Assembly (NCBI RefSeq): GCF_055900595.2 | Contig: NZ_CM148325.1 | Strand: one strand, 5' to 3' | DNA: 64,000 nt | Shown: piece by piece, positions 46,938 through 47,160 of the stretch | How the letters are laid out: each line of letters opens with the position of its first letter | Numbering within the stretch: position 1 is the first letter of the stretch | Position numbers and translations under genes: made by a program | The notes under the pieces: model-generated | What the model saw: the letters and a program-made list of their open reading frames with translations, nothing else | Told to the model about the DNA's origin: nothing | Databases searched by the model: none

Positions 46938-47160
46938 TTAACTTTTTGCCGGATGCGGCGTAAACGCCTTATCCGGCCTACAGTTCGATGCGATTCGTAG
47001 GTCAGATAAGATACGTCAGCATCGCATCCGACAATAAGTGCCGGATGCGGCGTAAACGCCTTATCCGGCCTACGGTTCGATGCGATTTGTAGGTCGGATA
47101 AGATGCGTCAGCATCGCATCCGACAATAAGTGCCGGATGCGACCTACATTCACATGGCGC
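46938..47160. repeat. REP/BIME-type intergenic repeat array (two ~100 bp units plus a partial third)
   Basis: GCCGGATGCGGCGTAAACGCCTTATCCGGCCTAC...GTAGGTCAGATAAGA...CATCGCATCCGACAATAAGT repeated at 46938 and 47040. Confidence 0.85.

Follow-up and report, generated by a model that had tools for sequence, protein, structure and literature searches.

What is the repeated DNA that lies between the convergent genes ybhC and ybhJ, and does it amount to more than the repeats already familiar from Escherichia coli? The question arose from the window, that is, the whole 64-kb stretch of DNA analysed here, in which a sequence-only reading had reported tandem REP/BIME units in the ybhC-ybhJ gap and had rated them as context only. 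Repeat finding, hairpin features and the identity of the flanking genes all bore out this report. We consider it very probable that the element is a non-coding, BIME-2-type cluster of E. coli REPs, corresponding to the K-12 REP72a-d locus and made of two 92-bp units with a truncated REP behind them. As BIME-2 elements go it is a textbook case, already known in K-12, and nothing new. The modest rating was thus upheld, with two refinements: the unit measures 92 bp, and its copy number ranges from 0 to 3 among E. coli strains.

Location and extent of the array

The left-hand neighbour is the ybhC coding sequence (45648..46931, + strand), attributed from the open reading frame list and from the annotation of K-12 and of a strain that is 100% identical across the gap. 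The right-hand neighbour is ybhJ (47164..49425, - strand; stop codon at 47164-47166), with an annotated length of 2262 nt. The two genes converge, as had been read from the sequence. A 901-nt query, window 46600-47500, was 100% identical to E. coli strain Z0117EC0005, in which the flanks are annotated ybhC and ybhJ; the same two genes flank the gap in K-12 MG1655. This query matched 5,425 of the 5,426 complete E. coli genomes. The locus was matched at 99% or more in only 14-19 of the 5,426, which indicates that the window's strain carries an uncommon regional allele.

The gap measures 232 bp (46932-47163) and is nearly filled by a tandem array at 46947-47148 with a period of 92 bp, 2.1 copies and 96% identity. 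Only 15 nt are left before the array and 16 nt after it, so there is no room for more; the array is wholly extragenic. Tandem Repeats Finder placed one array at 46947-47141, with a score of 362, a period of 92, 2.1 copies, 96% matches and no indels. A separate repeat search divided the array into copies of 92 nt at 46947-47038 and 47039-47130, which are 96% identical, followed from 47131 by 16 nt of a third copy at 88%. The two full units differ at four positions only (46982, 46996, 47004 and 47013), and a 92-nt direct repeat at this identity cannot be a chance product. The number of units initially proposed, two and a partial third, was therefore correct, whereas their length, put at about 100 bp, had to be corrected to 92 bp. 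Likewise, the span first given, 46938-47160, described nearly the whole gap rather than the repeat proper, which occupies 46947-47148. When the gap was folded as RNA, the two strands reached z = -9.2 and -10.8 relative to shuffled sequences, and none of 200 shuffles folded as well.

A 104-aa ATG reading frame (47080-47394, + strand), which begins in the second unit and continues antisense across the 3' end of ybhJ, is almost certainly spurious.

Anatomy of the units

Each unit opens with a Y-type REP hairpin, which a 15-nt tail-to-tail linker separates from an inverted Z2-type REP hairpin; a 7-nt head-to-head linker completes the unit. The unit holds a 34-nt palindrome with CTAC at its end, GCCGGATGCGGCGTAAACGCCTTATCCGGCCTAC, and a 36-nt palindrome with GTAG at its start, GTAGGTCGGATAAGATGCGTCAGCATCGCATCCGAC. 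Both are built on the same design of a 7-bp outer stem, a 2-nt AA/GC mismatch, an inner stem of 4 or 5 bp and a 4-nt loop. Calling the units palindromic was fair in the sense that every unit contains two imperfect palindromes facing in opposite directions. GTAG was found at 46997 and 47089 and CTAC at 46978, 47070 and 47144. The array has the order Y(-) Z2(+) Y(-) Z2(+). Every one of the four REPs is 34 or 36 nt long, and at least one strand of each folds with -15 to -21 kcal/mol.

In unit 1, the Y-type REP (46948..46981, - strand, 34 nt) has its GTAG first on the - strand; the + strand reads the palindrome and then CTAC at 46978. Its outer stem of 7 bp is separated by a GC/TT (AA/GC) mismatch from an inner stem of 4 bp, which is capped by a 4-nt loop, and the hairpin folds with -21.3 and -19.5 kcal/mol. 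The short, S-type tail-to-tail linker that follows (46982..46996, 15 nt, AGTTCGATGCGATTC) has no IHF consensus. The Z2-type REP of this unit (46997..47032, + strand, 36 nt), with GTAG first on the + strand, carries two G-to-A changes, at 47004 and 47013, which amount to A.C mismatches when the + strand folds but to G.U pairs when the - strand does; the folding energy is -5.6 kcal/mol in the first case and -15.2 kcal/mol in the second.

The short head-to-head linker AATAAGT (47033..47039) joins this Z2 to the Y-type REP of unit 2 (47040..47073, - strand), whose sequence is that of the Y in unit 1. Behind it lie the second short tail-to-tail linker (47074..47088, GGTTCGATGCGATTT) and the second Z2-type REP (47089..47124, + strand, 36 nt, GTAG at 47089), in which the 7-bp outer stem is intact and the AA/GC mismatch, a 5-bp inner stem and the loop GTCA are present (-18.5 and -19.4 kcal/mol). 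The array closes with a truncated REP stub of 16 nt (47132..47147, - strand), reading GCCGGATGCG followed by ACCTAC, in which head and foot are kept and the middle is missing. Every Escherichia allele with at least one unit ends on the right with this conserved stub. The right spacer (47148..47163), ATTCACATGGCGCTTT, leads into the ybhJ stop codon.

Assignment to the BIME-2 family

REPs of E. coli are imperfect palindromes of 30-40 nt that have a conserved GTAG at their foot and, in the stem, a mismatch of two bases (PMC3333891). The present elements have the corresponding palindrome length and GTAG/CTAC foot, they are extragenic and dispersed, and the AA/GC mismatch (GC/TT on the other strand) was found in all four REPs of the window. 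As to their dispersal, the 901-nt query found a median of at least 27 places per E. coli genome. BIME-2 elements combine z2 and y REPs in tandem, with a short linker S and a copy number at a given locus that varies between strains (PMC3333891). The array likewise alternates inverted Y and Z2 REPs, separated by 15-nt and 7-nt linkers, in a variable number of tandem copies. The description of the repeats as typical for E. coli intergenic regions was thus justified, the GTAG/CTAC foot, the AA/GC mismatch and the BIME-2 organisation all being present.

The distinction between Y and Z2 rests on alignment, at high posterior probability, to the Rfam Y-l-Z2 model RF02564. On this model the shorter palindrome falls on the Y half, as does the Y REP of unit 1, and the longer one on the Z2 half. 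The Z2 outer stem reads GTCGGAT where the model has GCCTGAT, the changes being paired. A search with the classical 37-nt REP consensus, its central gap set at 5 nt, found nothing even when three mismatches were allowed. We attribute this to the central loop, which is shorter here; the pattern was the wrong one, and the element is not absent.

BIME-1 (RIP/RIB elements) shares with the present locus an inverted REP pair in an intergenic region, but it consists of a single Y + Z1 pair with a long L linker that carries an IHF site (PMC3333891), whereas the units here are tandem and their linkers short. The IHF consensus WATCAANNNNTTR was found on neither strand of the array. With no IHF site, a 15-nt linker, a tandem arrangement and a second REP with a long, Z2-type inner stem, BIME-1 was ruled out.

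A superficially similar candidate, the Replication Risk Sequence (RRS/TRIP1), is a GC-rich repeat of about 222 bp that triggers post-replication gaps. It came into view through its length, 222 bp as compared with 223 bp for the region reported here, and through an RRS paper that surfaced in the BIME literature. RRS/TRIP1 are G-quadruplex elements of 222 bp near lysO and dusC; the present locus is a different one, its GC content is only 52%, and neither strand bears a G4 motif. These findings refute the proposal, to which we assign virtually no chance of being correct.

The Rfam model itself raises another option. The match to RF02564 (naRNA4) at 47000-47070 on the - strand, which covers Y of unit 2, the linker and Z2 of unit 1, scored 71.9 bits against a gathering score of 59.5 and was the only Rfam match in the window. 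The element might accordingly encode a nucleoid-associated, naRNA4-type RNA: a non-coding Y-linker-Z2 transcript of the - strand that binds HU, bridges cruciform DNA and helps to condense the nucleoid. Function of naRNA4 depends on secondary structure rather than on sequence, and most REPs are transcribed (PMC4550694), both of which would suit such a role. The model, however, represents one Y-l-Z2 BIME-2 unit of REP325, and any Y/Z2 pair scores well on it (PMC4550694). Indeed, weaker naRNA4 matches were obtained in every register of the array and on both strands, and the 'l' linker of the model exceeds that of the array by 6 nt. A scan of 46400-47700 showed no promoter-like site, the published naRNA phenotype is tied to the REP325 locus and not to ybhC-ybhJ, and about 10% of strains do without the element, which we also count against this reading. 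REP325, the BIME-2 between yjdM and yjdN that holds naRNA1-6, does resemble the present array in its tandem Y/Z2 units. It comprises, however, six 77-nt Y-l-Z2 units with U spacers (PMC4550694), as opposed to two units with 7-nt and 15-nt linkers here. Since the model is generic for Y/Z2 pairs, matches occur in all registers and a promoter-like site is missing from the scanned interval, we do not take the match for a separate sRNA gene; an naRNA4-type gene is very unlikely at this locus. The case is a reminder that the Rfam naRNA4 model will flag any Y/Z2 unit of a BIME-2.

The BIME-2 assignment was borne out by comparison with K-12, which had been proposed as the check. In MG1655, REP72a-d occupies the same locus with the same architecture, two Y-S-Z2 units and a truncated REP, in a gap of 233 bp as compared with 232 bp here. 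A 2023 paper using the K-12 annotation lists 'REP72abcd' with ybhC (PMC10100675). Four REPs make up precisely two Y/Z2 units, so that the element had been catalogued before. REP72 of K-12 does not lie elsewhere in the chromosome, and the hairpins do have genomic relatives. The two alleles nevertheless differ in detail: the gap is 91.8% identical to that of MG1655, whereas nucleotide identity reaches 96.1% in ybhC and 97.0% in ybhJ (window 45648-49425). The second Y REP of K-12 has accumulated five substitutions and a 1-nt insertion, a state it has in common with Escherichia sp. E1V33, whereas the two Y REPs of the window are identical; and the two linker variants stand in the opposite order. 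The identical Y REPs and the opposite linker order suggest that units were duplicated, converted or unequally exchanged relatively recently in the lineage of the window.

Copy-number variation and the REP-free allele

Alleles of the gap were told apart by the record span of matches to a synthetic four-unit query. They ranged from a gap of 70 bp with no units (NRZ96052a) over one of 140 bp with a single unit (strain 3347558) and one of 232-233 bp with two units (window, K-12 and O121) to one of 324 bp with three units (strain N96). Units 1 and 2 of N96 are identical to the two units of the window. The number of units always changed in steps of 92-93 bp. In 29 genomes sampled at even spacing from the query-match ranking, two units were found 16 times, one unit 10 times and none three times. 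For E. coli overall this corresponds to one unit in about a third of the genomes and two in about half; three occur in at least one genome. The REP-free 70-bp sequence itself is present in 527 of the 5,426 complete genomes.

Other species were covered by a pattern scan for the conserved ybhC C-terminus, one genome per species, by which 84 enterobacterial loci were retrieved; E. fergusonii was not among them. The largest array seen at this locus is that of E. albertii NBRC 107761, where a gap of 513 nt holds five full 93-bp Y/Z2 units, several of them with one-sided stem mutations, and the same truncated REP. A single unit occurs in E. whittamii as well as in two 'E. coli' species representatives; Escherichia sp. 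E1V33 carries two units, and Escherichia sp. MOD1-EC7003 shows just one isolated Y REP. In Citrobacter with an adjacent ybhJ, the gap measures 53-97 bp; in some cases it contains a terminator hairpin of the canonical bidirectional kind, in the others a head-to-head pair of unrelated Citrobacter REPs. Such a pair, GTAGGCCCGGTAAGCG... / ...CCTTATCCGGCCTAC, was observed within the first ~95 nt after ybhC in Citrobacter youngae, Citrobacter sp. Res13-Sevr-PEB04-36 and Citrobacter gillenii, and suggests an independent REP colonisation of the same gap. Judging from the distribution of the alleles, REPs would have colonised the gap within Escherichia and later expanded and contracted by whole units.

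In the REP-free allele (NRZ96052a, L005:633-702) the gap contains two convergent hairpin-plus-T-run terminators, one for each of the converging genes. As about 10% of E. coli genomes lack the array and have ordinary terminator hairpins in its place, the array is dispensable. The right spacer of the window, ATTCACATGGCGCTTT, resembles in alignment and fold the right arm and T-run of the terminator hairpin in the REP-free alleles.

These observations bring up the question of whether the element is mainly a bidirectional transcription terminator for ybhC and ybhJ, its repeat structure being incidental. The position between convergent genes would fit, the orthologous gap of REP-free E. coli and of several Citrobacter species holds canonical hairpin-plus-T-run terminators, and the right-hand spacer of the window retains a GGCGCTTTTT remnant. 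An intrinsic (Rho-independent) terminator, however, has a GC-rich hairpin directly before a T/U run, an arrangement that was not found in the array. A terminator scan detected no hairpin followed by a T-run on the + strand and, on the - strand, one weak 6-bp site inside a Z2 REP that was at the level of shuffled sequences. The REP hairpins have no trailing U-runs, and the units are members of a dispersed repeat family, not a structure specific for this locus. A primary role as terminator is therefore unlikely.

One may go a step further and propose that the array displaced ancestral convergent intrinsic terminators, and that its copy number (0-3, and 5 in E. albertii) serves as a heritable rheostat. 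Terminators of this kind persist in roughly 10% of E. coli genomes, and gaps like that of Citrobacter koseri have them too. We regard this proposal as quite unlikely, and hold the same low expectation for the joint claim that the quantity tuned would be ybhC/ybhJ mRNA stability, read-through or local supercoiling beside the lambda attachment site. Even if true, it would still be a variation on known REP biology and would at most make a modest story, on copy number tuning 3'-end behaviour or on REPs replacing an ancestral terminator pair. The BIME-2 array is of modest use as a clear illustration of how whole units vary in number at a single locus, followed through 5,426 genomes and several Escherichia species, and its natural REP-free allele could be used as a control in work on REP function.

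Possible dynamics and functions of the array

Two routes could account for the changes in copy number of the BIME-2 array. By analogy with what is described for the family, slipped-strand mispairing or unequal recombination between the 92-bp units would expand and contract the array in register. Alternatively, strand exchange might be carried out by the REP-associated tyrosine transposase (RAYT/TnpA-REP). RAYT-catalysed strand exchange was demonstrated in vitro, and binding of the enzyme needs GTAG and the AA/GC stem mismatch (PMC3333891). Both recognition determinants are intact in the array of the window and were found in 14 of 16 orthologous units. REPIN/RAYT systems, for instance in Pseudomonas fluorescens, similarly consist of inverted REP doublets, which probably depend on a domesticated Y1 transposase; the REPs are likewise inverted here, and the GTAG and stem-mismatch determinants of such systems are conserved at this locus.

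On the transcript level, hairpins at the 3' end of the ybhC (+) or the ybhJ (-) mRNA would block 3'-to-5' exonucleases, and they would also dampen read-through into the opposing gene. REP-containing mRNAs were reported to be stabilised, and ybhC/REP72 appears in a list of such transcripts (PMC10100675).

Stem conservation was examined in 16 distinct orthologous units from six Escherichia lineages. No compensatory double substitutions were found among them, only one-sided transitions, 10 leading to G.T and 7 to A.C, with no strand bias. With one-sided transitions only, the comparison provides no independent sequence evidence for or against selection on the stems, nor for the strand on which it would act.

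REPs close to stop codons reportedly cause ribosome stalling and trans-translation, at a distance of up to ~15 nt (Liang, Rudd and Deutscher, Mol Cell 2015). The ybhC stop codon TAA lies at 46929-46931 and the first REP stem begins 16 nt further on, just outside this distance.

On the level of DNA, the Y REPs would be preferred sites of gyrase binding and cleavage. Gyrase prefers the y REPs of BIME-2, and binding and cleavage in vivo were reported for the family (PMC6379681). In those supplements of this gyrase-mapping (Topo-seq) paper that were searched, neither ybhC nor ybhJ is mentioned.

Neighbouring and related sequences

A segment of about 38.7 kb (window 6874-45583) is absent from strain Z0117EC0005, which is otherwise 99.9% identical. 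At both of its junctions stands TTAGTATAAAAAAGC, which is the att core of phage lambda (GCTTTTTTATACTAA) in reverse complement, and a 356-aa reading frame of lambda-integrase size (44443..45513, + strand) lies at the right junction. The segment, which comes within 1.35 kb of the BIME, looks like a lambdoid prophage that has integrated between ybhB and ybhC at attB-lambda.

Among the records retrieved with the ybhC pattern, one titled Chryseobacterium sp. 18061 contained a ybhC of enterobacterial type, the C-terminus of which, …GVGSYVVAEPKK, is that of Citrobacter sp. 18056 from the same study. This assembly is probably mislabelled or contaminated.

Relatives of the REPs within the window were sought by blastn-short. 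A degenerate REP-like hairpin, CCGGAGGCGGCCTAAGCGCCCTCTCCGGCCTAA, was observed at 60630-60661 in the modF-galE intergenic region, with 84% identity to the Y REP over 32 nt.
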